The notes under the pieces are model-generated. The model was not told the DNA's origin, searched no databases, and worked only from the letters and a program-made list of their open reading frames with translations. A stretch of 64,000 nucleotides of DNA from NCBI GenBank assembly GCA_033551855.1, contig JAWSUI010000015.1, positions 1 through 64,000 on the forward strand, in the 5' to 3' direction. The DNA comes from Deferrisomatales bacterium. GTDB lineage: Bacteria > Desulfobacterota > Deferrisomatia > Deferrisomatales > JACRMM01. Shown here piece by piece: positions 1,111 through 34,905 of this stretch. The position numbers were made by a program, and so were the translations under genes. Within the stretch, counting starts at the first letter, position 1. The number at the start of each line of letters is the position of its first letter.

Positions 1111-2415
1111 TCAGTACAGCAGGCTGGGGAGGAAGGTGGCCGTCGCGGGAAACGCCATCATGATCCCGATGCACGCCGCAAAGGCCGCCAGGAAATACGC
1201 CACCCCCCGGAACACCGTCGTGATGGGCACGTCCCGGGCCATCGCGGCCACCACGAAGGCATTGACCCCCACCGGCGGGGTGACGGCTCCCAGGGTGGTG
1301 ACCACCGTGATCACCACCGAGAACCAGAGCGGGTCGTACCCCAACCGCACGGCGACGGGGAAGAAGATCGGGATCATGATCATCAGGAGCCCCAGGGCGT
1401 CCATGATCGCCCCGCCCACGGCGAAGATCAGGAGCATCAGGAGCAGGATGACCCCCCGAGGGATGGGGAGCCCGGTGATCCACTCCGCCGCCTCGAAGGG
1501 GATGCGGGTGATGGTGAGGAACCGCCCGAAGATGACGGCCCCGGCCACGATCACCAGGATCATGCAGGACATGCGGATGGTGTCGTCGAGCGCCCCGACG
1601 AACCCCTTCCACGAGAGGTGGCGCCCGGCGACGCTGATGACGATGGCGAAGAAGGCTGCTGCAGCCCCCGCCTCGGTGGGCGTGAACCACCCGGCGAAGA
1701 GGCCGCCCATGATCAGGGCGAAGAGGATCAGCATCTCCACCGAGCCCGGCAGGCTCCGAACCCGCTCCTTCAGGCTGACCTTCGGCCCCCGGGGCCCGGC
1801 GGAGGGCTGGAGAAAGCACACGGCCCACACGGTCGCCAGGAACAGGCCGGTGAGGATGAGACCGGGCACCAGGGCCGCGAAGAAGAGCCGGGCGATGGAG
1901 TCCCCCGTGGACAGGCCGATGAGGATCAGCACCACGCTCGGGGGGATCACCACGCCCAGGGTCGCCCCGCAGGCGACGGACCCGGTGCTGAGGGCGTTGT
2001 CGTACCCGAACCGGCGCATCTCGGGCAGCGCCACGGTGCTCATGGTGGCGGCGGTGGCCGCGTTGGAACCGCAGATTGCCGCGAACCCGGCACAGGCCAG
2101 CACCGTCGCCATGGCCAGCCCCCCGCGGATGTGCCCCAGCCAGGTGTAGGCGGCCCGGTAGATGCGCTCGCTCAGCCCCGCGGCGAAGCAGATGTTCCCC
2201 ATGAGGATGAAGAAGGGGATCACGGTCAGCCCGTAGGAGGAGAAGGTCTGCCACAGGGAGCTGCCCACCATGTTCAGGGCCGCCCGGGGGTTGACCACCA
2301 CCGCGAAACCCAGGTAGCCCACCAGCGCCATGGCAAACCCCACGGGCATGCGAAACAGGAAGATCATCGCCATCAGGCCGGCGACTCCCGTGAGGCCGAT
2401 GGTCACAGGGTCCAT
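1111..2415 (-). CDS. dctM: TRAP transporter large permease
   Basis: Highly hydrophobic; GATLGVVIPPS, FTPTEA and TPPVG motifs. Confidence 0.93.
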   Translation of the reverse strand: MDPVTIGLTGVAGLMAMIFLFRMPVGFAMALVGYLGFAVVVNPRAALNMVGSSLWQTFSSYGLTVIPFFILMGNICFAAGLSERIYRAAYTWLGHIRGGLAMATVLACAGFAAICGSNAATAATMSTVALPEMRRFGYDNALSTGSVACGATLGVVIPPSVVLILIGLSTGDSIARLFFAALVPGLILTGLFLATVWAVCFLQPSAGPRGPKVSLKERVRSLPGSVEMLILFALIMGGLFAGWFTPTEAGAAAAFFAIVISVAGRHLSWKGFVGALDDTIRMSCMILVIVAGAVIFGRFLTITRIPFEAAEWITGLPIPRGVILLLMLLIFAVGGAIMDALGLLMIMIPIFFPVAVRLGYDPLWFSVVITVVTTLGAVTPPVGVNAFVVAAMARDVPITTVFRGVAYFLAAFAACIGIMMAFPATATFLPSLLY

Positions 2416-2903
2416 CAGCCGCCCCCCCGCCCCGGCCGCAGGGCGGCGATCCCGTCGAGCCCGAGCCGCAGGCACAGCCCCCAGACCCCCAGGGCGACGC
2501 AGAACACGATGGGGTAGAACGCCACTCGGAGCGTCTCGGAGAGCTCTCCCGTGCGCATCAGGTCCACACCGAGGCGGGCGAGGCGATACCCCGCAAGGCC
2601 GAAGAAGGCCGAGCACGCCAGGTGGGAGACCGCGTCCAAGACCCGCTGGAGGCGCGGTCCCAGGCGCTCGAACAAGAGATCCACCGAAATGTGGTTGCGG
2701 CGCTCCTGGGTGTAGCCGAGGGCGAACGCCGCGATCACCGCCCCCCCGAATCCCATCAGCTCGAAGGACCCCTGGACCGGGCGGCCCATGGGGCGCAGCA
2801 CCATGTTGAGCACGGCGATCGCCATGGTGGCCAGCAAGGCCGCCGACGCCGCCCTGAGCATCCAGCGGTTCAGGAGCTGCGAGGCTCTACCCAGCCATTC
2901 CAT
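2415..2903 (-). CDS. dctQ: TRAP transporter small permease
   Basis: About four TM segments, HISVDL motif, lies between dctP and dctM. Confidence 0.9.
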   Translation of the reverse strand: MEWLGRASQLLNRWMLRAASAALLATMAIAVLNMVLRPMGRPVQGSFELMGFGGAVIAAFALGYTQERRNHISVDLLFERLGPRLQRVLDAVSHLACSAFFGLAGYRLARLGVDLMRTGELSETLRVAFYPIVFCVALGVWGLCLRLGLDGIAALRPGRGGG

Positions 2904-2925
2904 GGCGGGATCTCCCGTGCCAGGC

Positions 2926-2956
2926 CCGGGGCGGCCCTCCCGGAGGGCCGCCCCGG
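2926..2956. terminator. GC-rich hairpin between dctP and dctQ (mRNA stabiliser/attenuator)
   Basis: CCGGGGCGGCCCTCC-C-GGAGGGCCGCCCCGG inverted repeat. Confidence 0.55.
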
Positions 2957-2964
2957 AGAGCGTG

Positions 2965-3990
2965 TCACTTCCCCAGCTCCGCCTCGTACTTCTGCTTCAG
3001 GGCGAAGAGGTCTTCGAGGAACGCCTTGGCCGGCAGGCCCTTGGCTTCCAGGCTCGCGGCCCACTCGTCGATGACCGGCTTCATCGTTTCGTGGGCCTTT
3101 CGGTATTCCTCGGGTGCCAGCCGGATCAGCTCCAGGTTGTACTTCTCCACCGACCATTCCACCGACTCCCTGCCGTGGTTATCGACGTACTCGCCCACCC
3201 AGAGGGAGTGCTCGCGCGCCGCGTCGTCGAACACCTTCTTCACGTCCGCCGGCAGGGACTCCCACTTCTTCCGGTTCATCACCACCCCGAAGGCCGTGGT
3301 CTGCATATCGGTGATCGTGGCGTAGCGGAGCATCTCCGCAAAGTTGAAGTCCTTGAGCACGTCGAGGGAGGAGAACACCCCCTTCACGATCCCCTTCTGC
3401 AGCGCTTCCGGGGTCTCGGACTGGGGCATGGCCACCGGGACCGCACCCAAGAGCTGCAGGGGCTTCACCCCGGCCCCCGTGGCCCGCAGCTCGTATCCGC
3501 GCAGGTCCGCCAGCTGCCGAATGGGGGTCCTGGACATGATCTGCGCCGGCGGCGCCGTGAAGAGGGCGAGCACCTTCACGTTCTCCAGGGACTTCGGCTG
3601 GTACTTCACGTACAGGTCCCAGAGGACCGCGTTGGCCACCTTCGAGCTCGTGAAGCCCACCGGCAGGTCGACCCCCTCCAACAGCTCGAACCGGCCCGGC
3701 TGATAGGGGAAGGCCAGGCAGCCGATGTCCGCGACCCCGTCGATGACGCCGTCCATCATTCCCCGGGCGTCCAGCAGGGTGGAGCCGGGGAAGGTCTTGA
3801 CCTCCACCTTGCCCCCCGTGCGCTGCTCCACGGTCTCCCTCCACTTCTCCATCTGGACCGAGGGAAAGGTGGGGGCCGGAGGGAAGTTGGCGTAGGTCAG
3901 GCTGATCTTGTCCGCTGCCGTGGCGGCCGAGGCGACGAGCCCCAGGGCCAGGCAAGCTCCGAGGGCGGAGAACATGGTGCGACGTTTCAT
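2965..3990 (-). CDS. dctP: TRAP transporter substrate-binding protein
   Basis: Signal peptide MKRRTMFSALGACLALG; DctP features (TGGKVEV, DLRGYELR, EALQKGIV). Confidence 0.92.
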   Translation of the reverse strand: MKRRTMFSALGACLALGLVASAATAADKISLTYANFPPAPTFPSVQMEKWRETVEQRTGGKVEVKTFPGSTLLDARGMMDGVIDGVADIGCLAFPYQPGRFELLEGVDLPVGFTSSKVANAVLWDLYVKYQPKSLENVKVLALFTAPPAQIMSRTPIRQLADLRGYELRATGAGVKPLQLLGAVPVAMPQSETPEALQKGIVKGVFSSLDVLKDFNFAEMLRYATITDMQTTAFGVVMNRKKWESLPADVKKVFDDAAREHSLWVGEYVDNHGRESVEWSVEKYNLELIRLAPEEYRKAHETMKPVIDEWAASLEAKGLPAKAFLEDLFALKQKYEAELGK

Positions 3991-4366: not shown

Positions 4367-5182
4367 TCACCCGTTGAAGCGGGACAGGAGTGCCTCGAGG
4401 GCGCTCCCCCCGAGGGCGCGGGCCTTGTCCGAGATGGTGAAGCACATCCCCCGGTCTCCCCGGGGATCCACATCCCCTGCTTTCAGGCCCGCGTGCACCC
4501 GGACCCCGGGTCGCAGGAGCCCCCTCAGGATGCCGCCGATCTGCGCCCGCAGCTCCACGGGGCCCACCCGGGCCACGGCTTGCCCCCGGGAGACCGGGTC
4601 CCCGATCTCCGCCAACCCCTCGAGGACGCCCTCGCCGGGGCACCGGAGCACCCGTTCGACCGTGTAGCCCGCCGTGCTTCCGGGGACCCCCGTGTTGGGC
4701 TGGGCGCTGCCGTCGACGATCAGGCGGCCCAGGTCGTGGCCCCGGTTGGTCTCCACCACGACGTCCGCGTCCACCCCGGCGGTGAAGCCCGGGCCGAAGC
4801 CCACCACCAGCTCGGCCATGTCGCGGTGGGTCCCCAGGTTGCGCTTGGCCAGCACCGCATCCAGGACGGCGTGGGGACCCCAGGTCGCGAGGCACGAGAG
4901 GTGCGGGTCGACCAGCACCGGGATCTCCCCCCGGTCGAGCACCGGGTCGAGCTCGGCCGCGGTCTCCACCCGCCGGCCCCGGACCCCCTCCACCTCACTG
5001 GTGCCGTCCCACACGGCCTCGCAGAAGCTCACCTTCCGCCGGACCGCGAGGGGTTGGGGCACCTCGGTCATCGCGACCCGGAAGTGGCTCCGGAAGAGCC
5101 GGTGGGCGATGCCGGAGGCCATCTCCCCCGCCCCCCGGACGAGGACCCGGAGGTCGGTCAGACTCGAGTGCAGGCGCATCAA
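4367..5182 (-). CDS. yqeB: Selenium-dependent molybdenum hydroxylase system protein (YqeB/EF2563 family)
   Basis: VRGAGEMASG, AVRRKVSFCEA, ETNRGHDLGR, KAGDVDPRG, ISDKARALGG motifs. Confidence 0.9.
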   Translation of the reverse strand: MMRLHSSLTDLRVLVRGAGEMASGIAHRLFRSHFRVAMTEVPQPLAVRRKVSFCEAVWDGTSEVEGVRGRRVETAAELDPVLDRGEIPVLVDPHLSCLATWGPHAVLDAVLAKRNLGTHRDMAELVVGFGPGFTAGVDADVVVETNRGHDLGRLIVDGSAQPNTGVPGSTAGYTVERVLRCPGEGVLEGLAEIGDPVSRGQAVARVGPVELRAQIGGILRGLLRPGVRVHAGLKAGDVDPRGDRGMCFTISDKARALGGSALEALLSRFNG

Positions 5183-8987: not shown

Positions 8988-10271
8988 CTACCGTCGGTCG
9001 AACACGCGCTGGACCCGCTGGTTGCTCCGGGGCAGCGCCGCGTAGTCCACCATCTTCACCTCGGCGGACACCAGGATCTGGCTCTTGATCCGGTGCTCGA
9101 TATCCGCCTCGATCCTTTCGTCGTTGAGGGGATTCCCCGCCGGGTCCCGCTCGACGCGCACCGACATGAGGTCCCTGCCGTAGCGCCGCTCCAGCACGAT
9201 CTCGTACTCGCTCGACACCCCAGGGCTCTCCGAGATGATCTCCTCGATCTGCCCCGGGTAGACGTTGACGGCCCGGTAGATGAACATGTCGTCGTCGCGA
9301 CCCAGGATCCGGTCGTGGCGGGGGTAGACCGAACCGCAGGGGCACGGCCCCGGCAGGAGCCGCGTGAGGTCTCGGGTGCGGTAGCGGATGAGGGGGGAAC
9401 CCTCCTTGGTCAGGGTCGTCACCACCATCTCCCCAACCTCGCCGTCGGGCACGGGACGCAAGGTCGCCGGGTCGAGCACCTCCAGGAGATACCAGTCGGA
9501 CCAGTAGTGGATGCCCCGGCGGCGGCGGCACTCGATCCCGGCCCCCGGACCGTAGAGCTCCGTGAAACCGCTCAGGTCGTGGAGGTGCTCCGCGCCCAGG
9601 AGCTCCAGGATGCGCCGGCGCATGCCCTCGCTGCAGCGCTCTGCCCCCTGGATCACCGTGCGGACCCGGATGCGGCTGCGCAGGTTGCGGCGGGCGACCT
9701 CTTCCGCGAGGAGCAGGGCCATGCTCGGGGTGCAGCACAGCACGTTCGGCTCCAGGTCCGTGAGCATCTGGCACTGCATGTCCAGGTTGCCGGGCCCCAC
9801 CGGGATCGCCAGGGCCCCGACGGCCTCGCAGGCGGCCTGGAAGCCCGAACCCGCCGTCCAGAGGCCGTAGCCGACCGAGATCTGCACCGCGTCCCCGGGG
9901 CCCACGCCGGCCGTCTCGAAGCAGCGGGCGAAGTGGCGGGTCCAGTCCTCCAGGTCCTTGCGCGTGTAGCACAGGATCTTGCGCTTGCCCGTGGTGCCCG
10001 ACGAGGAGTGGACCCGGACCAGCCGATCCCGGGGTACGCAACGCAGGGGCAGGGGGTAGCCCGCCCTCAGGTCCTCGGCCGTGGTGAAGGGCAGCCGCTG
10101 GAGGTCCTCCAGGGTCCGGACGTCCTCCGGCCGCACCCGGGCCCCGTCGAAGCGCTGTCGGTAGAACGCGCTGCCCTCGTAGGCGTGCCGCACCGTCCAG
10201 CGCAGGCCGCGCAGCTGCGCCTCGGCCAGGGGCTCGTCCCGGGCCGGCTCCAGGCGGGGCGCGGTCAGCAC
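8988..10271 (-). CDS. Phenylacetate-CoA ligase family protein
   Basis: HSSSGTTGK, GYGLWTAG, PLIRYRTRD, GRDDDM. Confidence 0.9.
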   Translation of the reverse strand: MLTAPRLEPARDEPLAEAQLRGLRWTVRHAYEGSAFYRQRFDGARVRPEDVRTLEDLQRLPFTTAEDLRAGYPLPLRCVPRDRLVRVHSSSGTTGKRKILCYTRKDLEDWTRHFARCFETAGVGPGDAVQISVGYGLWTAGSGFQAACEAVGALAIPVGPGNLDMQCQMLTDLEPNVLCCTPSMALLLAEEVARRNLRSRIRVRTVIQGAERCSEGMRRRILELLGAEHLHDLSGFTELYGPGAGIECRRRRGIHYWSDWYLLEVLDPATLRPVPDGEVGEMVVTTLTKEGSPLIRYRTRDLTRLLPGPCPCGSVYPRHDRILGRDDDMFIYRAVNVYPGQIEEIISESPGVSSEYEIVLERRYGRDLMSVRVERDPAGNPLNDERIEADIEHRIKSQILVSAEVKMVDYAALPRSNQRVQRVFDRR

Positions 10272-10365
10272 GGCCCCCCCTCCCGCCCGTCCCCGCCGGC
10301 CCGCCGCAGGAGCCGGCGCTCGGCCGGACCCCCGGCTCCCAGCGGCGCTGCGCCCCAGGACACGC

Positions 10366-11655
10366 TCACGCCGTGCGCTCGTCGTACACGCGGCGGGACT
10401 TCCTCTCGCTGCGCGGCAGCATCCCGTACTCCACCACCTCCACCTCCGCGGACACCAGGACCCGGGTCTTGATCCTCTGCTCGATCTCCCGTGCGAGCTC
10501 CCGCTCCCGCCCCGCCGGGGCGCCGGGGTCGCGCTCGACCCGGACGGTCATGAAGTCCTTCCCCTCCCGGGTCTCCAGGTGGATGGTGTACTCGCTGGAA
10601 ACACCCTCCACGTCGGACAGAAGCTCGTCGATCTGCCCCGGGTAGATGTTGACCGCCCGAAAGATGATCATGTCGTCGTCGCGACCCAGGAGCCGGTCGT
10701 GGCGCGGGAGCACCGACCCGCAGGGGCAGGGCTCCGGGAGGGCCCGGGTGAGATCCCGGGTGCGGTACCGGATCAGGGGGGACCCCTCCTTGGCCAGGGT
10801 CGTCACGACCATCTCGCCGATCTCCCCAGGAGCCACCGGTTGCAGGCTCTCCGGGTCCAGGAGCTCGAGCAGGTAGTAGTCCGCCCAGTAGTGGATCCCC
10901 TCGTGCCGGGAGCAGTCGATCCCGGCACCGGGGCCGTAGAGCTCGGTCATCCCGGTGATGTCGTAGAGGTGCTCGGCCCCCAGGAGCTCGAGAATGCGGC
11001 GGCGCATGGCCTCGCTGCACCGCTCGGAGCCCTGGATCACGGTCCGGACGCGGATCCGGTCCCGCACGCCCCGCCGCTCCACTTCTTCCGCCAGGAGCAG
11101 CGCCATGCTGGCGGTGCAGCAGATCACGGTGGGCTGGAGGTCCACCAGGAAGTGGCACTGCATGTCCAGGTTGCCGGGCCCTACCGGGATCGCTAGGGCC
11201 CCCACCGCCTCGCACCCGGCCTGGAAGCCGACCCCTGCGGTCCACAGGCCGTACCCGACCGCGATCTGGACACGGTCCCCCGGACCGACCCCGGCCATCT
11301 CGTAGCACCGGGCGAAGAAGTGGGTCCAGTCCTCCACGTCCTTGCGCGTGTAGCACAGCACCTTGCGCTTCCCCGTCGTTCCCGAGGAGGAGTGGATCCG
11401 GACGAGCTCCTCGAAGGGCGCGCTGCGCAAGGGGAAGGGGTAGCCCTCCCGCAGGTCGTCGGCGGCGGTGAAGGGCAGACGTCGCAGGTCCCCGAGGGAG
11501 CGAATCCCCTCTGGGGCCACCCCCGCCCCCTCCAGGCGGCGGCGGTAGAAGGGGCTGCCCTCCCAGGCGTGCCGCACGGTCCACTGGAGGCCCCGGAGCT
11601 GGTGGGCGGCGAGCTCCTCTTCCGTGCGGAAGCCCGGCATGAACGTCTTGGCCAT
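10366..11655 (-). CDS. Phenylacetate-CoA ligase family protein (tandem paralogue)
   Basis: Same PaaK motifs; ATG 11655 with GGGAG RBS. Confidence 0.9.
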   Translation of the reverse strand: MAKTFMPGFRTEEELAAHQLRGLQWTVRHAWEGSPFYRRRLEGAGVAPEGIRSLGDLRRLPFTAADDLREGYPFPLRSAPFEELVRIHSSSGTTGKRKVLCYTRKDVEDWTHFFARCYEMAGVGPGDRVQIAVGYGLWTAGVGFQAGCEAVGALAIPVGPGNLDMQCHFLVDLQPTVICCTASMALLLAEEVERRGVRDRIRVRTVIQGSERCSEAMRRRILELLGAEHLYDITGMTELYGPGAGIDCSRHEGIHYWADYYLLELLDPESLQPVAPGEIGEMVVTTLAKEGSPLIRYRTRDLTRALPEPCPCGSVLPRHDRLLGRDDDMIIFRAVNIYPGQIDELLSDVEGVSSEYTIHLETREGKDFMTVRVERDPGAPAGRERELAREIEQRIKTRVLVSAEVEVVEYGMLPRSERKSRRVYDERTA

Positions 11656-17501: not shown

Positions 17502-17580
17502 CTCGTTGACAGGGGATCGTTGGGACGAACACGACCGATGGGCCCCATGGGACCGCTACGTCCCGTCGGTCCTGTGGGTC

Positions 17581-18398: not shown

Positions 18399-18448
18399 CG
18401 TTGCGCCCCTCGGACGGGTCGGACGCGTCCGACCCGTCCGAGGGGCGC

Positions 18449-20731: not shown

Positions 20732-20786
20732 GGGAACCTCCCGCCCGTGACGTGTGACGCCCCCGGGAACCCCTACCGGCCCCCGG

Positions 20787-24118: not shown

Positions 24119-24150
24119 CGGGACCTCTTCTCCGGATGTGTTTGTTTTTG

Positions 24151-24172
24151 ACTGTGTATTGTTCTACTCAGT
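24151..24172. promoter_or_regulatory. Putative operator palindrome in the leader of the minus-strand operon
   Basis: ACTGTGTA-TTGTTC-TACTCAGT (ACTGnGTA-N6-TACnCAGT) in an AT-rich stretch. Confidence 0.5.
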
Positions 24173-24204
24173 ATAAAAATCCGTTTGTCACATTTCGAAG
24201 TCGC

Positions 24205-24233
24205 AGTCTAGAGCCCTCTTTGGGCTCTGTCAA
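24205..24233 (-). promoter_or_regulatory. Sigma70 promoter for the minus-strand catabolic operon
   Basis: TTGACA-17 bp-TAGACT on the minus strand; spacer is the palindrome AGAGCCC-N5-GGGCTCT. Confidence 0.75.
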
Positions 24234-24293
24234 CCGGGGGCGTTTACGATTCCTAGCGCGACCCTTCACATCGTCGGAAATCCTTTTGTAGCG

Positions 24294-24322
24294 TTGACAG
24301 AAGCGAGACCCTCTGCTACGGT
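24294..24322 (+). promoter_or_regulatory. Sigma70 promoter for the hcr-like operon
   Basis: TTGACA-17 bp-TACGGT with extended -10 TGn. Confidence 0.65.
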
Positions 24323-24453
24323 CCCTCCCTGCAGCGGGTCGGCTTCGGGTGCGGTCCGCACACAAACAGTGTTTGGGCAACGCGCAACCGGCGTTGCGGC
24401 CCATTCGGCGCAGACCGGGCGCCCCGCCGCCGCTGGGCATCCGGGAGGAGACG

Positions 24454-25461: not shown

Positions 25462-25967
25462 GCGGGGCACAGAAGGCCATCCTGGAGCTCAGGGTGAACG
25501 GCAACCGGCACACGGTCCTCGCGGCCCCAGGGCGCACCCTGCTCGAGGTCCTGCGGGAGGACCTGGGCCTGACCGGCGCCAAGGAGGGGTGCGGCGTGGG
25601 GGCCTGCGGGACGTGCACGGTGCTGCTGGACGGGGCCCCGGTACGCTCCTGTCTGACCCTGGCCTGTGAAGCCCAGGGCAGTGAGATCCTGACGATCGAA
25701 GGGTTGGCGGAGACCTGGGCAGACCGGGCCGAGGGGGAGCTCCACCCCGTCCAGGAGGCCTTCGTGGAGGGCCACGGGATTCAGTGCGGCTTCTGCACGC
25801 CCGGCATGATCCTCACGGCCAAGGCGCTGCTGGACGAGAACCCGGACCCCACCGAGGCCGAGGTGCGGGCCGCCCTGTCCGGGCAGGTGTGCCGCTGCAC
25901 GGGGTACGCCAAGATCGTGGAGTCGGTCCTGGGCGCCGCCCGCCGCCTCCGGGAGGTGCAGCCGTGA
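25458..25967 (+). CDS. HcrC-like 2Fe-2S subunit
   Basis: GCGVGACGTC, QCGFCTPG, CRCTGY; GTG start overlaps the upstream stop. Confidence 0.92.
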   Translation: MSGAQKAILELRVNGNRHTVLAAPGRTLLEVLREDLGLTGAKEGCGVGACGTCTVLLDGAPVRSCLTLACEAQGSEILTIEGLAETWADRAEGELHPVQEAFVEGHGIQCGFCTPGMILTAKALLDENPDPTEAEVRAALSGQVCRCTGYAKIVESVLGAARRLREVQP

Positions 25968-28261
25968 AGCCCGGCCGAGTGATCGGTACCAGCATCCCGC
26001 GGCGGGACGCGCGCCTGAAGGCCACGGGCGAGGCCCGCTACGCGGCGGACGTGAGCCTGCCCTTCATGCTCCACGCCGCGGTCCTGCGCAGCCCCCTTCC
26101 CCACGCCCGGATCGTGCGGCTCGATGCCGCCCCGGCCCTCGCACTGCCCGGGGTCAAGGCGGTCGTGACCGCCGCCGACGCCTCCGGCGTCAAGTGGGGC
26201 GTCTTCCGCTACACGCGGGATCAGGAATTCCTGGCACGGGACGTGGTGCGCTACATCGGCGAGGAGGTCGCGGCGGTGGCGGCCGAGACCGAGGAACTCG
26301 CCCGGGAGGCGGTGTCCCGGATCGTCGTGGAGTACGAGCCGCTGCCCGCGGTCTTCGACCCCCTTTCCGCCATGGCGCCCGGCGCACCGCGGGTGCACGC
26401 GCACGCGGAGCGCAACGTGAACATCCACGTGCCCATACACGTGGGCGACGTGGACGCGGCCCTGGGCGAGTGCGCGCACGTGCACACCGAGCGCACCGAG
26501 AGCGAGGAGGAGAGCTACTTCATGACCGAGCCCTACGCGGTGGTCGCCCACTGCGACCGCCAGGGCACGGTCGAGGTCTGGATGCCCAACGCAAGCCCCC
26601 ACACCAAGGCCAAGGGGCTGGCGAACGCCCTCGAGCTCCCCGTCTCCAAGGTCCACGTGCGCCACGTCACCGTAGGGGGTGCCTTCGGGGGGCGCAGCGA
26701 CATGTTCCCGGGGGAGTACATCGCCGCGCTCCTCTCCCGCAAGACCCGCCGGCCGGTCAAGCTCGTCTACACCCGGGAAGAGAACTCCATCGCCGTGCGC
26801 CAGGGACACTCCATGGTGGTGGAGAGCACCTTCGGGTTCCTGCAGGACGGCACCCTCCACGCCGCCGACGTCACCGCGCACATGGACGGCGGCGCCTACT
26901 CCTCCACCGGCCCCATCGCCACGAGCGTCCCCTTCCTGTGCTTCGAGCAGACCTACCGGGTCCCGAACGTCCGGTACAACGGGTACCGGGTCTACACCAA
27001 CAAGCCCATCCGGGGGATGATCCGCACCCACGGCCGCGCCTGGGCGTGCAACGTGGACATGCAGCTCGATCTCGCGGCCCGGGCCCTGGGCCTGGACCCC
27101 ATCGAGATCCGGCGCCGGAACGCCCTCCGGGGCGGCGAGCACACGCCCACCCGCAGCTTCATCCCGGTGATGGCGAGCCGCGAGACCATCGACGCCGTCG
27201 CCGAGGCGAGCCGCTTCCGGGAGAAGTGGGGCAAGCTCCCCCCCTGGCACGGCATCGGGGTGGGCTGCGTGAGCGTGATGAGCGGCTTCCCCATGGGCAT
27301 CCGGGGCGGCTCCGCGGCCATGATCAAGTTCGACGAGGACGGCGGCGCCACCCTGATCTCGGGGGTGGTGGACAACGGCCAGGGCAACGAGGGTGTGGTG
27401 CTGCAGATCGCGGCCGAGGCCCTGGGGATCCCCGTGGACCAGATCCAGCTCACCGCCTCGGACACCGAGGTCACCCCCATCGACCAGGGGGCCTACTCCC
27501 AGGCCACCACCTTGGTGAGCGGCAACGCCGTGCGCCTCGCCTGCGAGGACGCCCGGCGACAGATCCTGGAGATCGCGGCCGAGGCCATGGAGGCCAGCGC
27601 CGCGGATCTGGACATCGAGGACGGGCGCATCTTCGTGCGGGGCTCCCCGTCGCGGGCCATGCCCGTGGCCAAGGCCATCCGCACAGGCCTGCTCCAGGGC
27701 AAGGCGGTGCTCGGCCAGGGCAGCTTCGGGCCCAACGTGGACCAGACCCGGGAGTGGATCACCAACCCAAAGGGCCAGCTCGCGGCGGCCTTCAGCTACG
27801 GCAGCGCCGTGGTGGAAGTGGCGGTGGACCCGGAGACCGGGCTGGTGGACGTCCTGGACGTGTGGGTGGCCCACGACTGCGGGCGTGCCATCAACCCCGC
27901 GGAGGTGGAAGGCCAAATGGAAGCGGGGGTCGCCATGGGGGGCCACGGCGGCATCCTGCTGGAGGCCTGCAAGTGGCACCAGGGCGCCAACCTGAACACC
28001 GGCTTCCTGGACTACAAGGTGCCCCTTGCCCCGGACATGCCCCCCATCCACAACTTCATCATCGAGTCCGAGGACCCGGTCGGCCCCTTCGGCGCCAAGG
28101 AGGGGGGGCTCTCGATCTCCATGTGCACGGCCCAGGCGTACACCAACGCCATCGCCGACGCCATCGGGACCTACCTCCGGGAGTTCCCCCACACCCCGGA
28201 CCGGATCCTGGACGCGATCGAGAAAAAGGGAGGGGATGCAGGTTGGACGGAAAGCACATGA
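25964..28261 (+). CDS. HcrA-like molybdopterin-binding subunit
   Basis: GGAFGGR, DNGQG, HDCGRAINP, GPFGAKEGGL; in operon with HcrB/C-like genes. Confidence 0.88.
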   Translation: MKPGRVIGTSIPRRDARLKATGEARYAADVSLPFMLHAAVLRSPLPHARIVRLDAAPALALPGVKAVVTAADASGVKWGVFRYTRDQEFLARDVVRYIGEEVAAVAAETEELAREAVSRIVVEYEPLPAVFDPLSAMAPGAPRVHAHAERNVNIHVPIHVGDVDAALGECAHVHTERTESEEESYFMTEPYAVVAHCDRQGTVEVWMPNASPHTKAKGLANALELPVSKVHVRHVTVGGAFGGRSDMFPGEYIAALLSRKTRRPVKLVYTREENSIAVRQGHSMVVESTFGFLQDGTLHAADVTAHMDGGAYSSTGPIATSVPFLCFEQTYRVPNVRYNGYRVYTNKPIRGMIRTHGRAWACNVDMQLDLAARALGLDPIEIRRRNALRGGEHTPTRSFIPVMASRETIDAVAEASRFREKWGKLPPWHGIGVGCVSVMSGFPMGIRGGSAAMIKFDEDGGATLISGVVDNGQGNEGVVLQIAAEALGIPVDQIQLTASDTEVTPIDQGAYSQATTLVSGNAVRLACEDARRQILEIAAEAMEASAADLDIEDGRIFVRGSPSRAMPVAKAIRTGLLQGKAVLGQGSFGPNVDQTREWITNPKGQLAAAFSYGSAVVEVAVDPETGLVDVLDVWVAHDCGRAINPAEVEGQMEAGVAMGGHGGILLEACKWHQGANLNTGFLDYKVPLAPDMPPIHNFIIESEDPVGPFGAKEGGLSISMCTAQAYTNAIADAIGTYLREFPHTPDRILDAIEKKGGDAGWTEST

Positions 28262-28382: not shown

Positions 28383-28817
28383 ATGAAAGCCAAGGCCATC
28401 GACCACATCTGCTTCGTCGTGCGCGACCTCGACGAAGCCGTCGCGCGCTACCGCGACACCCTGGGGATGGAGCCCGACGGGTACTACACGGCTCCCTCGG
28501 AGAGCATCCGGGTGGCCCGGTACTACCTGGAGAACGTCGCCCTCGAGCTCATGGAGCCCACCCGGCCGGACAGCGAGGTGGGCCGCTTCCTCGAGAGGCG
28601 CGGGGAGGGCTTCTTCCTCATCTCCTACCGGGTGGACGATGTGTCCGAGGGACTTGCGGAGCTCGCCGAAAAGGGGCATCGGACCATCGACCGGGTGCCC
28701 CGGGAGCTCATGGGCAACCGGTACGCCTTCCTTGCCCCGCCCCCCCAGATGTACGGCGTGCTCACCGAGATCCTCGACGGGGAGTTCGACCGGGGCTACG
28801 ATGAGGGCGGCGGATGA
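28383..28817 (+). CDS. VOC family protein, methylmalonyl-CoA epimerase-like
   Basis: IDHICFVVRDLDEA, LELMEP, FLERRGEG, GVLTE. Confidence 0.82.
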   Translation: MKAKAIDHICFVVRDLDEAVARYRDTLGMEPDGYYTAPSESIRVARYYLENVALELMEPTRPDSEVGRFLERRGEGFFLISYRVDDVSEGLAELAEKGHRTIDRVPRELMGNRYAFLAPPPQMYGVLTEILDGEFDRGYDEGGG

Positions 28818-28868: not shown

Positions 28869-29792
28869 GTGAACCCTGACCCGACCTTCTCTTCCGTCGA
28901 CGCCATCATCCGGGCGTTCCGGGAGCACCACTACGTGGCGGACCCCGCGGTCGCCACGATCCTCTACCTCAGCCGGGCGCTGCAGAAGCCCCTGTTCCTG
29001 GAGGGTGCGCCCGGCGTGGGGAAGACCGAGCTGGCCGTGGTCCTGGCGCGGGCCATGGACACCGAGCTCATCCGCCTGCAGTGCTACGAAGGGCTGGACG
29101 CCTCCATGGCCCTCTACGAGTGGAACTACCCCCGCCAGATCCTGGAGATCAAGCTCCAGGAGGTGTGCGGGGACCGGGATCGGCTGGCGCGGACGATCTT
29201 CAGCGAGGAGTTCCTGATCAAGCGGCCCCTGCTCCAGGCCATCCAGCACCCCGGTCCACAGCCCGCGGTGCTGCTCATCGACGAGCTGGACCGGGCCGAC
29301 GAGGAGTTCGAGGCCTTCCTGCTGGAGCTCCTGGCGGACTACCAGATCACCGTCCCGGAGCTCGGCACCCTGCGCGCCGTGGTGAAGCCGATGGTCATCG
29401 TCACCTCCAACCGCACTCGGGACGTCCACGACGCCCTCAAGCGCCGATGCCTGTACCACTGGATCGACTACCCGGACTTCGACAAGGAGTACGCCATCGT
29501 CCGGAGCCGCCTGCCGGGCGTGGAGGAGCGGCTGGCCGCCCAGGTGTGCCGCTTCATGGAGCGCATCCGGACCGAGGACTTCCTCAAGCGGCCCGGTGTC
29601 GCGGAGACCCTCGACTGGGCCGCCGCCCTCCTCGCGCTCAACCACCACACCCTGGACGCCCCGGTGGTGGAGGCCACCCTGGGATGCATCTTCAAGAACC
29701 AGCAGGACATCCAGGTCTTCCGGGAGCAGATCTGGGGGGACGAGGGCCGCCGCCGGGAGTACCTGCAGGACGTGAAGGAGAACGTGTGTTGA
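28869..29792 (+). CDS. MoxR-family AAA+ ATPase (CoxD-like)
   Basis: EGAPGVGKTE, IRLQCYEGLD, LIDELDR, ALKRRCLY. Confidence 0.92.
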   Translation: MNPDPTFSSVDAIIRAFREHHYVADPAVATILYLSRALQKPLFLEGAPGVGKTELAVVLARAMDTELIRLQCYEGLDASMALYEWNYPRQILEIKLQEVCGDRDRLARTIFSEEFLIKRPLLQAIQHPGPQPAVLLIDELDRADEEFEAFLLELLADYQITVPELGTLRAVVKPMVIVTSNRTRDVHDALKRRCLYHWIDYPDFDKEYAIVRSRLPGVEERLAAQVCRFMERIRTEDFLKRPGVAETLDWAAALLALNHHTLDAPVVEATLGCIFKNQQDIQVFREQIWGDEGRRREYLQDVKENVC

Positions 29793-29832
29793 GCGCTGCC
29801 CCTGCGCGGCCCGCCCGGGCGCCGAGGCCTCG

Positions 29833-30615
29833 GTGACGCCGGCCGGGGACGGGCCCCGGCCCCGCATCCGGGAGCTCCTGGAGGCCGGCGAAGCCTTCTG
29901 CCTGGCCACCGTCGTCGCCTCCCGCGACCCGGCGGTGCGGGTGGGGGCGAGAGCCGTCGTCCGAGGGGACGGGACCGCCGAGGGGGAGCTCGGCGACGAG
30001 GGGGTGGGCCGGGAAGTGCACCGCCTCGCGCGGGAGGCACTGGGGCGCCGGCGCAGGGGCCTCGTGGAGCCGCGCCCCGGTCTGCAGGTCTTCCTGGACG
30101 TGATGGCACCGGAGGCCGAGCTCCTGGTGTGCGGGGCGGGCCACATCGCCGTGCCGCTGGCCGCATTCGCCCGGCAGCTCGGTTTCGCGGTGACCGTACT
30201 GGACGACCGGGCCGACTTCGCGCGCCCGGACCGGTTTCCGGGCTGCGAGGTCGTGGCCGAGGACTTCGTGGGCGCCCTCCGGCGGCTGCCCCTGGGGCCC
30301 GACACCTATGTGGTGGTCATCACCCGGGGGCACGAGCACGACGCCGAGTGCCTGGCGGAGGTCCTCCCGAAGCCGACCGCCTACGTGGGCCTCATCGGGA
30401 GCCGGCGGCGGGTGGCCTTCGTCCTGGAGATGCTCGGCCGCGAGGGCGTCCCCGCGGAGCGGCTGACCGAGGTCTTCACTCCCATCGGGGTTCCCCTGGG
30501 GGCCGAATCGCCGGAGGAGATCGCCCTGTCGATCGCCTCCGAGCTGGTCTGCGTGCGCCGCAAGGGGCCGGAACAGGCCCGCGCCCTGCGGGACGCCGCA
30601 GGGGGAAGCCGATGA
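29833..30615 (+). CDS. XdhC/CoxF family molybdenum cofactor insertion protein
   Basis: CGAGHIA, DDRADFA, TRGHEHD, YVGLIGSRRR, PEEIALSI. Confidence 0.9.
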   Translation: MTPAGDGPRPRIRELLEAGEAFCLATVVASRDPAVRVGARAVVRGDGTAEGELGDEGVGREVHRLAREALGRRRRGLVEPRPGLQVFLDVMAPEAELLVCGAGHIAVPLAAFARQLGFAVTVLDDRADFARPDRFPGCEVVAEDFVGALRRLPLGPDTYVVVITRGHEHDAECLAEVLPKPTAYVGLIGSRRRVAFVLEMLGREGVPAERLTEVFTPIGVPLGAESPEEIALSIASELVCVRRKGPEQARALRDAAGGSR

Positions 30616-30929
30616 CCGACCGGGAGATCTTCGCGCGCCTCGCTGCGCTCCGGCAGGACGGGAAGGAGGTCTGCCTGGCCACCATCGTGGAGGCGGCCGG
30701 CTCCACGCCCCGCGACGTGGGGGCCAAGATGCTCGTGTGCGCCGACGGCACCACCTTCGGCTCGGTCGGGGGAGGCTGCGGCGAACGCCAGGTGAAGACC
30801 GCGGCGCTCCGGTGCCTCCTGACCACCCGTGCCCCGGAGCTGGTGGAGGTCGACCTCACCGACGATCTCGGCACCCGGGGCGGCGACGTCTGCGGCGGCC
30901 ACATGCGGATCTTCGTCGAGCCGGCCTGA
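30612..30929 (+). CDS. Stand-alone XdhC/CoxI N-terminal domain protein
   Basis: GSTPRDVGAKM, GSVGGGC, CGGHM. Confidence 0.85.
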   Translation: MTDREIFARLAALRQDGKEVCLATIVEAAGSTPRDVGAKMLVCADGTTFGSVGGGCGERQVKTAALRCLLTTRAPELVEVDLTDDLGTRGGDVCGGHMRIFVEPA

Positions 30930-31157
30930 CCCCCCGGCACCGCTGCCGTCATCGCCATCGGTATCGGTGTCGCGATCGGAATCGATCCCGATCCCGATGG
31001 GGATGGCGAGCTCGAGGAACAGGCGCCGCCGGTCTGGTTAGGGCGCCGTAAAATGCGGGCTGCATCCCCGCCCTTCGGGGGGGCCCGGTGGCATTTCGGT
31101 CTTCACTTCGGGAGCCTTGGGAGGAGAGAGATGACGACGCACGAAGACTGAGCGCCG

Positions 31158-32312
31158 ATGTCCGACCTCTCCACGCCCCCGCGCCCCGGCCGCCCGGAGT
31201 CCCCCGACGGACCGTTGGGCATGGCGGGGAACATCGTTGCCTTCTCCCGGCTCCTCAAGGACGCCGGGCTCCCCACCCACCCCCAGGCGGTGGTCGATGC
31301 CTGCCGATCCGTGGCCCTGCTGGACCTCGGCGACCGCCGGCAGGTCTACTGGGCGCTCCGGGGCAACCTGGTCACCGACCGGCAGCGCTACGAGGCCTTC
31401 GACCGCCTCTACCGCCTGTTCTGGGAAGAGGGGGTCCGCCGGCTCCCCCGCCGGCAGCCGGCCCCGCTGGGCCGGATCCCCGTCTTCGCCCCCGTCCCCC
31501 CCGGCGGGGAAGGGGTGGGGCGGACCGCCCCCGACGCCTCCGGCGGCGCCAGCCCCGACGAGCTCTTGATCCGCAAGGACCTGCGCACCCTCGCCCCGGA
31601 AGAGGAACCGCGGCTCCGGGAGATCCTCCAGTCCCTCCTCGCCAAGCTCGCCACCCGGCCGGGCCGCAGGTACCGGCCCACCTTCCGGGGCCGCGGCCTG
31701 GAGCTCCGCCGCACCTTCCGGCGCAACGCCGCCCTGGGCGGCGAGCTCGTCCGGCTCGTCCGCCGGGCGAGAAGGGTCCGCCGCCTTCGGGTGGTGTTCC
31801 TCGGGGACGTCTCCGGGTCCATGGACGCCTACAGCCGCTTCTTCCTCCTGGTGGCCCACGCCCTCGGGCGGCAGGAACCCGGGGTCGAGGTCTACGCGTT
31901 CTCCACGCGGCTGTTCCGGCTCACCGAGTTCGTGCGGGACCGGGACGCCAGCCGCGCCCTGGAGCGCCTGGCGCAGCAGACCCTGGGCTGGTCCGGGGGG
32001 ACGAGGATCGGCCAGTGCCTCGGCGAGCTGCACCGGGCGCTGGCCCGCCGCCCCCGCCTCCGGGACACCGTGGTGGTCATCCTGAGCGACGGCTGGGACC
32101 GGGGGGACCCCGGCCTGGTGCGGCGGGAGATGGCTCGCCTCAAGGGGGCCGTCTCACGGATCTACTGGCTCAACCCCCTGAAGGGCGACCCCGATTACCG
32201 TCCCCTGTGCCAGGGCATGGCCGCCGCCCTGCCCTACGTGGACGGCTTCTACCCGGCCCACAACGTGGAATCCCTGGCCCGCTTCACCCGGCAGCTCGTC
32301 CGCGTGCGGTGA
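31158..32312 (+). CDS. vWA-domain protein (CoxE-like)
   Basis: DVSGSM MIDAS, FSTRL, WSGGTRIG, SDGWD, WLNP; start may be 31221. Confidence 0.9.
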   Translation: MSDLSTPPRPGRPESPDGPLGMAGNIVAFSRLLKDAGLPTHPQAVVDACRSVALLDLGDRRQVYWALRGNLVTDRQRYEAFDRLYRLFWEEGVRRLPRRQPAPLGRIPVFAPVPPGGEGVGRTAPDASGGASPDELLIRKDLRTLAPEEEPRLREILQSLLAKLATRPGRRYRPTFRGRGLELRRTFRRNAALGGELVRLVRRARRVRRLRVVFLGDVSGSMDAYSRFFLLVAHALGRQEPGVEVYAFSTRLFRLTEFVRDRDASRALERLAQQTLGWSGGTRIGQCLGELHRALARRPRLRDTVVVILSDGWDRGDPGLVRREMARLKGAVSRIYWLNPLKGDPDYRPLCQGMAAALPYVDGFYPAHNVESLARFTRQLVRVR

Positions 32313-32393
32313 GCCCACGCCGAAGGAGGTGACCCCCCGACAACCACCGAACGACCGCAGCGCCGTCTCAACCCACCAGGAAAGGAGCCCCCC

Positions 32394-33758
32394 ATGGACC
32401 AGACGAAGTACCTCCTCACCGAGAAGGACATCCCGCGGCAGTGGTACAACATCGCCGCCGACATGCCCAACCCGATGAAGCCGCCGCTGCACCCCGGCAC
32501 CGGACAGCCCGTGGGCCCCGACGCCCTCGCACCGCTCTTCCCCATGAGCCTCATCGAGCAGGAGGTGAGCTCTCAGCGGTGGGTGGACATCCCCTCGGAG
32601 ATCCTCGACATCCTCAGCCTGTGGCGCCCGACCCCGCTCTACCGCGCCCACCGTCTGGAGAAGGCCCTGGGGACCCCCGCCAAGATCTACTACAAGTACG
32701 AGGGGACGAGCCCGGCGGGCAGCCACAAGCCCAACACCAGCGTGGCGCAGGCCTACTACAACATGAAGGAGGGCGTGAAGCGCATCGCCACCGAGACCGG
32801 GGCCGGCCAGTGGGGCAGCGCGCTCTCCCTTGCCTGCAACTTCTTCGGCATCGAGGCGAAGGTGTACATGGTCAAGATCTCCTACGAGCAGAAGCCTTAC
32901 CGGCGCATGCTCATGGAGACCTGGGGCGGCAAGGTCATCCCGAGCCCGTCCAACGAGACGGCGGCGGGCCGGAAGATCCTGGCCGAGAACCCGAATTCCA
33001 CGGGCTCCCTGGGCATCGCCATCTCCGAGGCGGTCGAGGACGCCGCCGGCCGCGACGACACCAAGTACGCCCTGGGGTCGGTGCTCAACCACGTCCTGCT
33101 GCACCAGACCGTGGTCGGCCAGGAGGCCCAGAAACAGATGGAGATGGCCGGCGACTACCCCGACGTGATCCTGGGGTGCTGCGGCGGGGGCTCGAACTTC
33201 GCCGGGCTCGCCTTCCCCTTCCTGCGGGACAAGATCGCCGGGAAGGCGATCGACGTGATCGGGTGCGAGCCCACGGCGTGCCCCACCCTCACCAAGGGGC
33301 ACTTCCACTACGACTTCGGCGACACGGTGGGGATGACCCCCCTGCTGCCCATGCACACCCTCGGCCACACCTTCGTCCCGGCCGGCATCCACGCGGGGGG
33401 GCTCCGGTACCATGGGATGGCGCCCCTCGTGAGCCAGCTGCTCAAGGACGACCTGATCCGGGCCATGGCCTTCCACCAGGTGGAGTGCTTCGACGCCGGA
33501 GTGCTCTTCGCCCGGAGCGAGGGCATCGTGCCGGCCCCCGAGTCGAACCACGCGATCCGGGGCGCCGTGGTGGAGGCCCTCAAGGCCAAGGAGGAGGGAA
33601 AGGAAAAGACGATCCTGTTCCTGCTCTCGGGCCACGGCCACTTCGACATGTCGGCGTATGAGGCCTATTTCGCCAAGACCCTCGAGGAGTACGAGCTCCC
33701 CGGGGCGGAGCTCGACAAGGCCTGGGACGCGATCAAGGGGCTGCCCTCGGCCGCCTGA
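32394..33758 (+). CDS. trpB: TrpB2 tryptophan synthase beta-like PLP enzyme (indole salvage type)
   Basis: GSHKPN PLP Lys, [31 protein letters not shown]; no trpA adjacent. Confidence 0.93.
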
Positions 33759-33766
33759 GGAACCGA

Positions 33767-33798
33767 GGGGGGGCGGGGCCCGGCCCCGCCCCCCCTTC
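33767..33798. terminator. Hairpin between convergent trpB2 and trpD-like genes
   Basis: AGGGGGGCGGGGCC-C-GGCCCCGCCCCCCTT. Confidence 0.6.
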
Positions 33799-33825
33799 CC
33801 GGCAACGAGCCGTGTCCCGCTCGGG

Positions 33826-34905
33826 CTACGCCTCCCGGAACCAACCCCGGCTCAGCCGCTGGGTGCGCTCCGCCAGGGCCTCGAGCTTCGCTCTCGCCCC
33901 GCCCGAATCCAGGCCCTGCAAGGCCATCCGGACCCCCTCCGGCAGGCCCTTGGCGACCCCGGCCGCGTAGAGGGCCGCCCCGGCGTTCAGGACCACGATG
34001 TCCCGCCGGGGACCCTGCTCTCCTCCCAGCACGGCCCGAACGATCGCCGCGTTCTCCCGGGCGTCGCCCCCCGCGATGTCCTCCGGCGACGCGCGCCCCA
34101 GGCCGAGCTCCTCCGGCGTCACCGCGTACTCCCGGATCGCCCCCTCCCGCACCTCGGCCACCTCGGTCGCCCCGCACACGGTGATCTCGTCCAGCCCGTC
34201 CTCCCCGCGCACCACCAGGGCCCGCTCCGCCCCCAGGGCGAGGAGCGCCTCGGCCAGCACCCGCGGGGACTCCCTGGCCCCCACCCCCACGAAGTGGCAG
34301 CGGGCCCCGGCCGGGTTTGCCAGGGGGCCGAGGAGGTTGAAGATCGTCCGAAGCCCCAGCTCCCGCCGCGGGCCGACCACGTGCCGGATGGTGGAGTGGA
34401 AGAGGGGCTCGTAGAAGAAGCCGATCCCGACGGTCTCGAGGCAGTCCTCCACGGCCGACGGGGTGAGGTCCGGCTCCACCCCCAGGGCCGCCAGGACGTC
34501 CGCACTCCCGCACAGGGGCGCCACCGCCCGCAGCCCGTGCCGCACCACCCGGACCCCGCAGGCAGCCACCGCGAAGGCGGTGGCGGTGGAGACGTTGAAG
34601 GTCCGGGTGCCGGAGCTCCCCGAGGCCATGAAGGCGGCGATCGTCTCTTGGTCCACGTTGATCTCGTCGCGGTCGATCGCCACCAGGGGCGCCCCGGCCC
34701 GGATCGAGGGCCCCAGGGAGCGCAGCACCCGGGCCGCCCCGGCGAGCTCCGAGCCGGTCACCCCCTTCACCCGCAGGGCCATGAGGAAGGCCCCGATCTG
34801 GGCGGCAGTCGCCTCCCCCCGGGTCACCTCGGTCATGACCGCGATCATCTCACCCTCGGACAGGTCCTCGCGCCCCGCCAGTCTCGCCAGCGCCTCCCGG
34901 ATCAT
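33826..34905 (-). CDS. trpD: Anthranilate phosphoribosyltransferase-like protein with degenerate substrate motifs
   Basis: AQIGAFLMALRVKG, TFNVST, GSADVL, RTIFNLLGPL, DGLDE; GTGGD and KHGN are altered. Confidence 0.82.
   Translation of the reverse strand: MIREALARLAGREDLSEGEMIAVMTEVTRGEATAAQIGAFLMALRVKGVTGSELAGAARVLRSLGPSIRAGAPLVAIDRDEINVDQETIAAFMASGSSGTRTFNVSTATAFAVAACGVRVVRHGLRAVAPLCGSADVLAALGVEPDLTPSAVEDCLETVGIGFFYEPLFHSTIRHVVGPRRELGLRTIFNLLGPLANPAGARCHFVGVGARESPRVLAEALLALGAERALVVRGEDGLDEITVCGATEVAEVREGAIREYAVTPEELGLGRASPEDIAGGDARENAAIVRAVLGGEQGPRRDIVVLNAGAALYAAGVAKGLPEGVRMALQGLDSGGARAKLEALAERTQRLSRGWFREA

Follow-up and report, generated by a model that had tools for sequence, protein, structure and literature searches.

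A probable indoleacetate-type degradation locus of a Deferrisomatales bacterium and its second, Hcr-like molybdenum enzyme with a remodelled active site

The anaerobic degradation of indole-3-acetate (IAA) is described for the iaa cluster of Aromatoleum aromaticum EbN1 and A. evansii, and the scheme of the upper pathway used here is that of the Fig. 1 legend and text of PMC8360864. According to the accessible part of that source, a GGG motif is the mark of IaaF, the acyl-coenzyme A (acyl-CoA) dehydrogenase of the pathway, and its Discussion already reports genes of an electron-transferring flavoprotein (ETF) in the iaa operons of Desulfatiglans anilini, other sulfate reducers and Ferroglobus placidus. 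Here, a stretch of 64,000 nucleotides from a Deferrisomatales bacterium (the window) was analysed, in which positions 1111-34905 carry an iaa-type locus together with a second molybdenum (Mo) enzyme, termed Mo2, which resembles 4-hydroxybenzoyl-CoA reductase (Hcr). The pathway itself is already known; the new element, which may surprise the specialist, is the remodelled Mo2.

As reference for the comparison, a metagenome locus (L102) was used that had been found, together with L103, through the iaaF reverse primer printed in PMC8360864; as only this primer fits, L102 is a proxy for the Aromatoleum-type cluster and not EbN1 itself. It comprises genes for TetR and GntR proteins, a thiolase, a ligase, hydantoinase A/B, acyl-CoA dehydrogenase, mutase B/A, the medium, small and large subunits of a Mo enzyme, a CoA-transferase and a binding protein. 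A search of 301 genomes aimed at a denitrifier reference yielded one iaa-like cluster (G160), the reference not being among the finds, while a search of the genome collection with the dehydrogenase returned only three close loci among 80, and a plasmid search gave CoA-transferases of only about 34% identity. The core genes of the locus are the following.

22925..24118, minus strand: class III CoA-transferase, IaaL orthologue (arylsuccinyl-CoA transferase), by PF02515 and tree
21636..22784, minus strand: acyl-CoA dehydrogenase, IaaF orthologue (decarboxylating benzylmalonyl-CoA dehydrogenase type), by GGG replacing YEG and by tree
15867..17991, minus strand: split B12 mutase, mutB/IaaG at 17581-17991 and mutA/IaaH at 15867-17495, 59% and 55% identical to L102
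11928..15772, minus strand: ATP-dependent lactam hydrolase, hydantoinase A/IaaC at 13667-15772 and B/IaaE at 11928-13670, 58% and 70% identical to L102; PF02538
5199..8929, minus strand: Mo hydroxylase 1, IaaIJK orthologue, medium subunit at 8069-8929, small at 7507-7998 and large at 5199-7514, by sequence and tree

For all nine core Iaa proteins of L102 (L, K, J, I, H, G, F, E and C), the genome-wide best match falls in the window, with identities of 38-70%, and all five proteins placed on trees (hydantoinase B, the dehydrogenase, MutA, the large subunit of Mo hydroxylase 1 and the CoA-transferase) group with the Iaa-type cluster. The assignment to the iaa type, which had been proposed in an earlier sequence-only reading of the same DNA, thus holds by best-match and tree tests, by the GGG motif and by active-site signatures of the mutase and IaaK; measured against the proxy L102, mutase, hydantoinase and CoA-transferase all stay with the Iaa clades. 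The CoA-transferase is 41% identical to IaaL of L102, as compared to 27% for the next paralogue of the genome, in a tree that was built with FastTree and holds a single outgroup row. The dehydrogenase (44% to IaaF of L102) lies within a 24-row IaaF clade with a support of 100 in the Shimodaira-Hasegawa-like approximate likelihood ratio test (SH-aLRT; quick tree), and GGG occupies the usual YEG position in 120 of 120 homologues, a count which, like those for Mo2 below, refers to the matches listed. The GGG of the G160 dehydrogenase was considered as a counter-example to this mark and dropped, since the G160 gene has iaa context. Moreover, the signatures GGG.GL and ALC.YDE are common to the window mutase and IaaH and missing in both paralogues of the genome, from which the MutA clade with IaaH (100/100) stands apart; it is also distinct from methylmalonyl-CoA mutase. 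Hydantoinase B and IaaE form a clade with a support of 100/99. The large subunit of Mo hydroxylase 1 (48% to IaaK) groups with IaaK (SH-aLRT 97-99), shares with it the motifs WDVGVHASR and AYTSWGATTP, and has the catalytic Glu and the pocket Gln intact.

Many sister clusters (L002, L003, L097, L099, L101, L123, L134, L140 and L142) retain mutase, dehydrogenase and IaaK and have IaaCE replaced by a second hydantoinase clade, which is 31-38% identical. In several relatives a GntR gene precedes mutB, which is absent at that place in this locus.

Further genes of the same strand extend the core.

19766..21551, minus strand: etfB at 20787-21551 and etfA at 19766-20731, candidate for a dedicated electron acceptor of IaaF, by family scans
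18105..19735, minus strand: fixC at 18449-19735 and fixX at 18105-18398, ETF:quinone oxidoreductase type, by family scans
8988..11655, minus strand: tandem pair of PaaK-type CoA ligases with a mutual identity of 72%
4367..5182, minus strand: yqeB, marker of selenium-dependent Mo hydroxylases, TIGR03309 343 bits, cut-off 220
1111..3990, minus strand: tripartite ATP-independent periplasmic (TRAP) transporter, dctP at 2965-3990, dctQ at 2415-2903 and dctM at 1111-2415, by family scans

With a probability of roughly 0.85, this minus-strand unit encodes the upper anaerobic IAA pathway of a Deferrisomatales-like strict anaerobe, where all substrates and reactions are read from gene content, orthology, motifs and co-occurrence. 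IAA would be taken up by the TRAP system and converted to IAA-CoA by the PaaK-type ligases, or IAA-CoA would be supplied from tryptophan by an indolepyruvate oxidoreductase (IOR). IaaIJK would then hydroxylate C2 with water, and IaaCE would open the lactam at the expense of ATP, giving (2-aminophenyl)succinate, on which IaaL would set the CoA and from which the B12 mutase would form (2-aminobenzyl)malonyl-CoA. Oxidative decarboxylation by IaaF is predicted to yield 2-aminocinnamoyl-CoA, the electrons passing to the co-encoded EtfBA-FixCX. Subsequently, β-oxidation genes elsewhere, among them an IaaA-like thiolase on contig C3, would lead to 2-aminobenzoyl-CoA, and a class II benzoyl-CoA reductase (BamB, contig C16) would handle the ring. 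This assignment has to face the fact that the CoA-transferase and dehydrogenase are only 41-44% identical to the proxy, that L102 fits the published reverse primer and not the forward primer, that the window is devoid of an IaaB orthologue, and that the genome holds no clear IaaP orthologue, the best match to an IaaP-like fusion being 30%.

The genes of the second Mo enzyme lie on the opposite strand.

24454..25461, plus strand: Mo2 medium subunit, HcrB-type, TIGR03195 232 bits, below the cut-off of 404
25458..25967, plus strand: Mo2 small 2x[2Fe-2S] subunit, by family scan
25964..28261, plus strand: Mo2 large subunit (Mo2L) of an Hcr-derived clade, with remodelled Mo pocket, by alignment to 1RM6 and model

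A second Hcr-like Mo enzyme had been named by the sequence-only reading and is present, its remodelled active site being what that reading lacked. In the alignment to 1RM6, Ala210 of Mo2L (codon 26591) takes the place of Gln214, which we take to be the pocket Gln of the Mo site, and Leu716 (codon 28109) that of the catalytic Glu726, while Thr355 (codon 27026) stands for a Gly and Gln513 (codon 27500) for a Ser. Among the 120 homologues listed, the position of the catalytic Glu is held by Met in 95, by Leu in 25 and by Glu in none; the pocket Gln is Ala in all 117 that cover the position, the glycine of the RG loop is changed to Thr, Val or Ile, and the conserved Ser to Met or Gln. Within one alignment, Glu is absent from 17 of 17 Mo2 genome rows and kept in 19 of 19 other rows, and it is likewise kept in 20 of the 21 next-nearest Hcr-like proteins. 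The pocket is invariant in its new form (PNA.PH, GRS[DE], H.R, YS[QM], KE.G[ML]), and the cofactor motifs GQG, EGQ and GAKE are retained in 120 of the 120 homologues listed. In addition, Mo2 forms its own clade among Hcr-like proteins with full support (100), and its medium subunit carries a Cys-rich [4Fe-4S] insert after GGN that is absent from IaaI. An AlphaFold model of Mo2L reaches a template modelling (TM) score of 0.91 against 1RM6, which confirms the fold and does not resolve the pocket geometry, as the active-site loops of this apo model are of low confidence. A conserved clade of the xanthine oxidase family that has dispensed with the catalytic Glu implies that either the Mo chemistry is new or the fold serves without Mo.

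Annotations of the Joint Genome Institute (JGI) often call Mo2 4-hydroxybenzoyl-CoA reductase, a function that is unlikely. Mo2 was rejected as the cell's Hcr since a true HcrA is encoded in the genome (1164 bits, cut-off 994), and for the same reason it is not needed for 4-hydroxybenzoyl-CoA. Two further candidates were dropped, namely that tandem Hcr-like large subunits generally have a Glu-less partner, which the next-nearest proteins do not bear out, and a carbon monoxide dehydrogenase-like Cu site, for which a Cys occurs at the loop position in some members only. Elsewhere in the genome, contig C29 (1-27000; L105, L106) encodes the true Hcr and a second Hcr-like enzyme with Glu intact beside a CoA ligase and a TRAP system, along with genes resembling phosphoenolpyruvate synthase, putatively of the phenol activation type. 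In another genome (G031), a 20-kb contig (C52, L189) bears eight consecutive genes for Hcr-like large subunits, among which none for a medium or small subunit occurs, and contig C98 (L191) two further ones beside a mutase; one protein of this set has Gln at the position of the catalytic Glu.

The distribution of Mo2 was surveyed in 381 genomes of the phylum with a completeness of at least 90%, where three candidates per genome were scored for Mo2L and IaaK, so that misses are possible. Mo2L occurs in 66 genomes (about one in six), an IaaK orthologue in 61 and both in 51; of the 15 Mo2 genomes without IaaK, 14 have an IaaH-type mutase, and iaa markers are found in 65 of the 66. BamB is encoded in 58 of the 66 Mo2-positive genomes as against four of the ten that are IaaK-positive and Mo2-negative. 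No Mo2 was detected in G030, the sole IaaK-positive genome with a class I BzdN above cut-off, nor in G160 or in 20 kb of L102.

We regard it as possible, though at somewhat less than even odds, that Mo2 reductively deaminates 2-aminobenzoyl-CoA to benzoyl-CoA. Low-potential electrons would enter by the HcrB-type subunit with its [4Fe-4S] cluster and flavin adenine dinucleotide and would reach a pocket rebuilt without the Glu and Gln of the family. This function is favoured by the reductive architecture of electron entry, by the tie to hosts with iaa genes and a class II reductase, and by the proposal made for the para isomer in D. anilini (PMC7500099, in its accessible part). The fuller claim, that Mo2 is the deaminating 2-aminobenzoyl-CoA reductase of strict anaerobes with class II benzoyl-CoA reductase, cleaving the aryl C-N bond without Glu and Gln and possibly with a partner of the vicinal oxygen chelate (VOC) fold, is a shade more tentative. 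Several observations are at odds with a deaminase: five of the 17 Mo2 rows have lost the pterin-side Arg of the RG loop (Gly in G090, G124 and G060, Pro in G016 and G095), and the Mo2 copy of L203 has lost the Gln of GQG. Four of the ten IaaK-positive Mo2-negative genomes (five of 11 with G018) have BamB and manage without detectable Mo2, eight of the 66 Mo2 genomes show no BamB at E 1e-250, and five of the six genomes negative for both Mo2 and BamB are also without a class I BzdN match; furthermore, kin genomes in these counts are not independent. In the accessible parts of PMC10420851 and PMC13753352 the glutamate is called conserved and essential, reductive dehydroxylation included, so its loss could equally mean that no Mo chemistry takes place.

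With the pterin-side Arg lost in five members and GQG in one further copy, a Mo2 without Mo chemistry is the main rival explanation, albeit an unlikely one. The large subunit would be Mo-free or hold the pterin only, and the HcrB-type and 2Fe-2S subunits would relay electrons for IaaIJK or serve as its partner half, so that in strict anaerobes the hydroxylation of IAA-CoA would be coupled to ferredoxin. Each of the four positions close to the Mo carries a substitution, in three cases by a bulkier residue, pterin-binding motifs are further eroded in some members, and the active-site loops of the apo model are poorly defined. Moreover, in G013 Mo2L comes immediately after the IaaK orthologue, in G086 the two are in one operon, and IaaK accompanies Mo2 in 51 of 66 genomes. 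However, the replaced pocket is itself invariant, unlike that of a decaying pseudo-enzyme, and the listed homologues without exception keep GQG, EGQ and GAKE; Mo2 often stands in an operon apart from IaaIJK with medium and small subunits of its own, and ten IaaK-positive genomes gave no Mo2.

The remaining features of positions 1111-34905 lie around and downstream of the Mo2 genes.

24119..24453, no strand: divergent promoter region of 335 bp, sigma70-like sites facing both ways
28383..28817, plus strand: VOC-fold protein, MCE-like, TIGR03081 83.7 bits against a cut-off of 114.95
28869..32312, plus strand: maturases, namely CoxD-like AAA at 28869-29792, XdhC at 29833-30615, XdhC N-domain only at 30612-30929 and CoxE-like vWA at 31158-32312, by family scans
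32394..33758, plus strand: TrpB2, sole copy in the genome, TIGR01415 above cut-off
33826..34905, minus strand: degenerate trpD duplicate, 58% identical to the trp-operon copy on contig C18, with MASGSSG for CGTGGD and RHGL for KHGN

The VOC protein had been read as an epimerase, a name that its TIGR03081 score, 83.7 against the required 114.95 bits, does not sustain; furthermore, one His, presumably a metal ligand, is lost (FLISY for HHIAY). Of the 27 Mo2 loci fetched, 19 have its gene no farther than about 3 kb from Mo2L, some of them far from a mutase. A true epimerase role is possible, as IaaF is enantiospecific according to PMC8360864 in its accessible part. In 12 of the 27 loci, from several families, Mo2 is flanked by a saccharopine-dehydrogenase-like gene, nearly always with a class III aminotransferase resembling glutamate-1-semialdehyde aminomutase. 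The two genes stand beside Mo2 in L133, L135, L137, L138, L143, L144, L115, L119, L098, L177 and L203 and are 68-85% conserved. Such neighbours would suit a Mo2 that acts on 2-aminobenzoyl-CoA or a later N-bearing intermediate without releasing ammonia, the nitrogen being removed by the VOC protein, the dehydrogenase-like protein and the aminotransferase. We consider this rather unlikely: the present genome keeps Mo2, has no match to the dehydrogenase-like protein and an aminotransferase match of only 31%, so that the pair is not required.

The two tryptophan genes had been taken as independent support for an indole pathway. As to TrpB2, its presence stands, as the only copy in the genome beside a canonical trpB in the trp operon on C18, whereas its weight does not, since it adjoins the Mo2 genes in just six of the 27 loci, five of these being close kin. 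The trpD duplicate lends no independent support, since it has lost GTGGD and KHGN, which we take to be functional motifs of anthranilate phosphoribosyltransferase, and a search of four other genomes revealed no close counterpart; its TIGR01245 score passes nonetheless. The frame of the duplicate is intact, with degenerate phosphoribosyl pyrophosphate and KHGN motifs, and it may bind anthranilate without catalysis or be a copy in decay; a second trpD, 40% identical, occurs in G106.

That the locus also degrades free indole, with TrpB2 condensing indole into tryptophan and indolepyruvate and IOR leading on to IAA-CoA, appears improbable. The only trpB2 runs in the same direction as Mo2, the canonical trp operon being on C18, one of the six adjacency cases is in an unrelated family (G095), and two IOR alpha genes of the genome score above cut-off. 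However, the other five cases are close kin, the window lacks a tryptophan aminotransferase, and TrpB2 has a salvage role that needs no catabolic link. Least of all do we expect Iaa-type chemistry on another substrate, be it ring-substituted IAA, benzofuran- or benzothiophene-acetate or the six-membered lactam of quinoline-4-carboxylate, for although the sister clusters re-use the mutase, dehydrogenase and IaaK module with the second hydantoinase clade (31-38%) and the ligases differ from IaaB, the window hydantoinase is of the IaaCE type (70% and 58%) and the IaaK pocket motifs hardly differ from those of the reference.

Returning to the predicted IAA pathway, the two CoA ligases, formerly read as IaaB, are a PaaK-type tandem duplicate without a match to the IaaB-type ligase at E 1e-5; the best IaaB matches, at most 34% identical, lie elsewhere in the genome, and the window ligases are likely functional stand-ins for IaaB and not its orthologues. 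Among 13 IaaF-like loci compared, etfBA is found in all and fixC in 11. The physiological electron acceptor of IaaF was left open in PMC8360864, as far as its accessible part goes, and the co-encoded EtfBA and FixCX make this point testable. The extra genes which led the sequence-only reading to speak of an expanded super-cluster are present; its novelty was overstated, since ETF genes of strict-anaerobe iaa operons were already in print. The presence of yqeB in the operon, of yqeC on contig C41 and of tRNA-Sec calls suggests a selenium-dependent Mo site in IaaIJK or Mo2. DctP homologues (47-54%) adjoin the cluster in other families and are not found at this place in G104, G026, G687 and G573. 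Beside yqeB, G026 (L113) has a second hydantoinase B (55%), PaaK-type and IaaB-like (38%) ligases and ATP-binding cassette (ABC) genes instead of TRAP, and G687 (L172) has ABC genes with IaaM-like and IaaB-like (40%) genes.

The pathway had been described as ending at 2-aminobenzoyl-CoA; by gene content the cluster itself stops at 2-aminocinnamoyl-CoA. Contig C3 has the IaaA-like thiolase (50%) next to IOR genes, and this thiolase is also present in four of five relatives. It belongs to a single run (about 97700-108000, L104) with a Sigma54 regulator, an acyl-CoA dehydrogenase, a long-chain-type ligase, IOR alpha/beta and a TRAP system, which likely provides shared β-oxidation of arylpropionate and cinnamate and an entry for arylpyruvates. 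Ligase and thiolase likewise stand together in G642, G104, G026 and G101.

Open reading frames (ORFs) of the window were obtained by GC-frame calling and their proteins scanned against Pfam and NCBIfam families, whereby every gene named earlier was recovered. The span 1111-34905 consists of two divergent units and the convergent minus-strand trpD. From 24118 down to 1111, the minus strand reads CoA-transferase, acyl-CoA dehydrogenase, etfB, etfA, fixC, fixX, mutB, mutA, hydA, hydB, two CoA ligases, medium, small and large subunits of Mo enzyme 1, yqeB and dctPQM; the plus-strand unit 24454-33758 holds the medium, small and large subunits of Mo2, the VOC gene, coxD, xdhC, a short xdhC, coxE and trpB2. 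The single transcription unit once assumed therefore dissolves, whereas the core enzymes then listed are indeed co-directional, all on the minus strand between 24118 and 1111. Intergenic gaps of this strand are at most 140 bp, save for hydB to the first ligase (272 bp) and yqeB to dctP (376 bp), the latter gap being the reason why the TRAP genes may have a transcript of their own. In the 335-bp divergent gap, a sigma70-like site for the minus strand lies at 24233, and the TTGACA for the plus strand recurs in G104 and G026. As had been stated, no thiolase, hydratase-dehydrogenase or regulator is found among the ORFs scanned in the span; a crotonase-family gene lies just outside, at 36873-37646, 2 kb past trpD, and is not at that place in G026, G104 and G573. 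The gene arrangement is far beyond chance, the same genes being clustered in many other genomes of the phylum.

An Rfam scan of the window gave no credible match, terminator counts are no higher than chance, and the repeats in the window are paralogous genes. Two intergenic elements, at 18020-18066 and 30959-31017, resemble each other, both being short, repetitive and rich in ATCCCG/ATCGGT units. Farther on, the alpha/beta region of a 2-oxoacid:ferredoxin oxidoreductase (43370-46285) appears frameshifted or broken, its long ORF being out of frame past about residue 500, and a WYL/WCX-domain gene (42015-43058) is located near a TPR gene (39559-41703) and an HhH gene (38141-39007). The named best matches of the dehydrogenase are proteins of Deferrisoma and Deferrisomatales with up to 85% identity, and BamB on C16 scores 1259 bits to 4Z3W; from both, a strictly anaerobic lifestyle is a fair inference.

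Compared with the known systems, the locus is closest in its core to the Aromatoleum iaa cluster (PMC8360864, accessible part), with which it has orthologues of IaaC, E, F, G, H, I, J, K and L (38-70% to the proxy L102), the GGG motif and the mutase and Mo-pocket signatures in common. It differs in gene order, in PaaK-type ligases in place of IaaB and TRAP in place of IaaM, in the absence of IaaA, IaaP, IaaQ and IaaR from the locus, and in the addition of EtfBA-FixCX, YqeB, maturases and Mo2. With the predicted iaa operons of D. anilini, other sulfate reducers and F. placidus it shares the iaaF orthologue and the co-encoded ETF, whereas FixCX and an Hcr-like second Mo enzyme go unmentioned in the accessible part of PMC8360864. 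In the literature searched, which did not extend to most subscription papers, no description of a Glu-less Hcr-like clade or of a gene for ortho deamination was found. HcrCAB of Thauera aromatica (1RM6) is the best match of Mo2L in sequence (E 7.7e-113) and fold (TM 0.91), and the medium subunits of both have the [4Fe-4S] insert, whereas Mo2 stays below the cut-offs of TIGR03194 (595 versus 994) and TIGR03195 (232 versus 404) and is without equivalents of Glu726 and Gln214. By description only, Mo2 may be likened to the putative 4-aminobenzoyl-CoA reductase of D. anilini (locus 03876), for which Hcr-like genes were proposed in reductive deamination of the para isomer (PMC7500099), and for the 2-aminobenzoyl-CoA reductase of A. 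evansii the accessible part of PMC4539516 describes the ortho reaction as an activity and gives no gene. In the accessible parts of both sources, reductive deamination of aryl amines by anaerobes is proposed without a tested enzyme, and Mo2 offers a concrete candidate.

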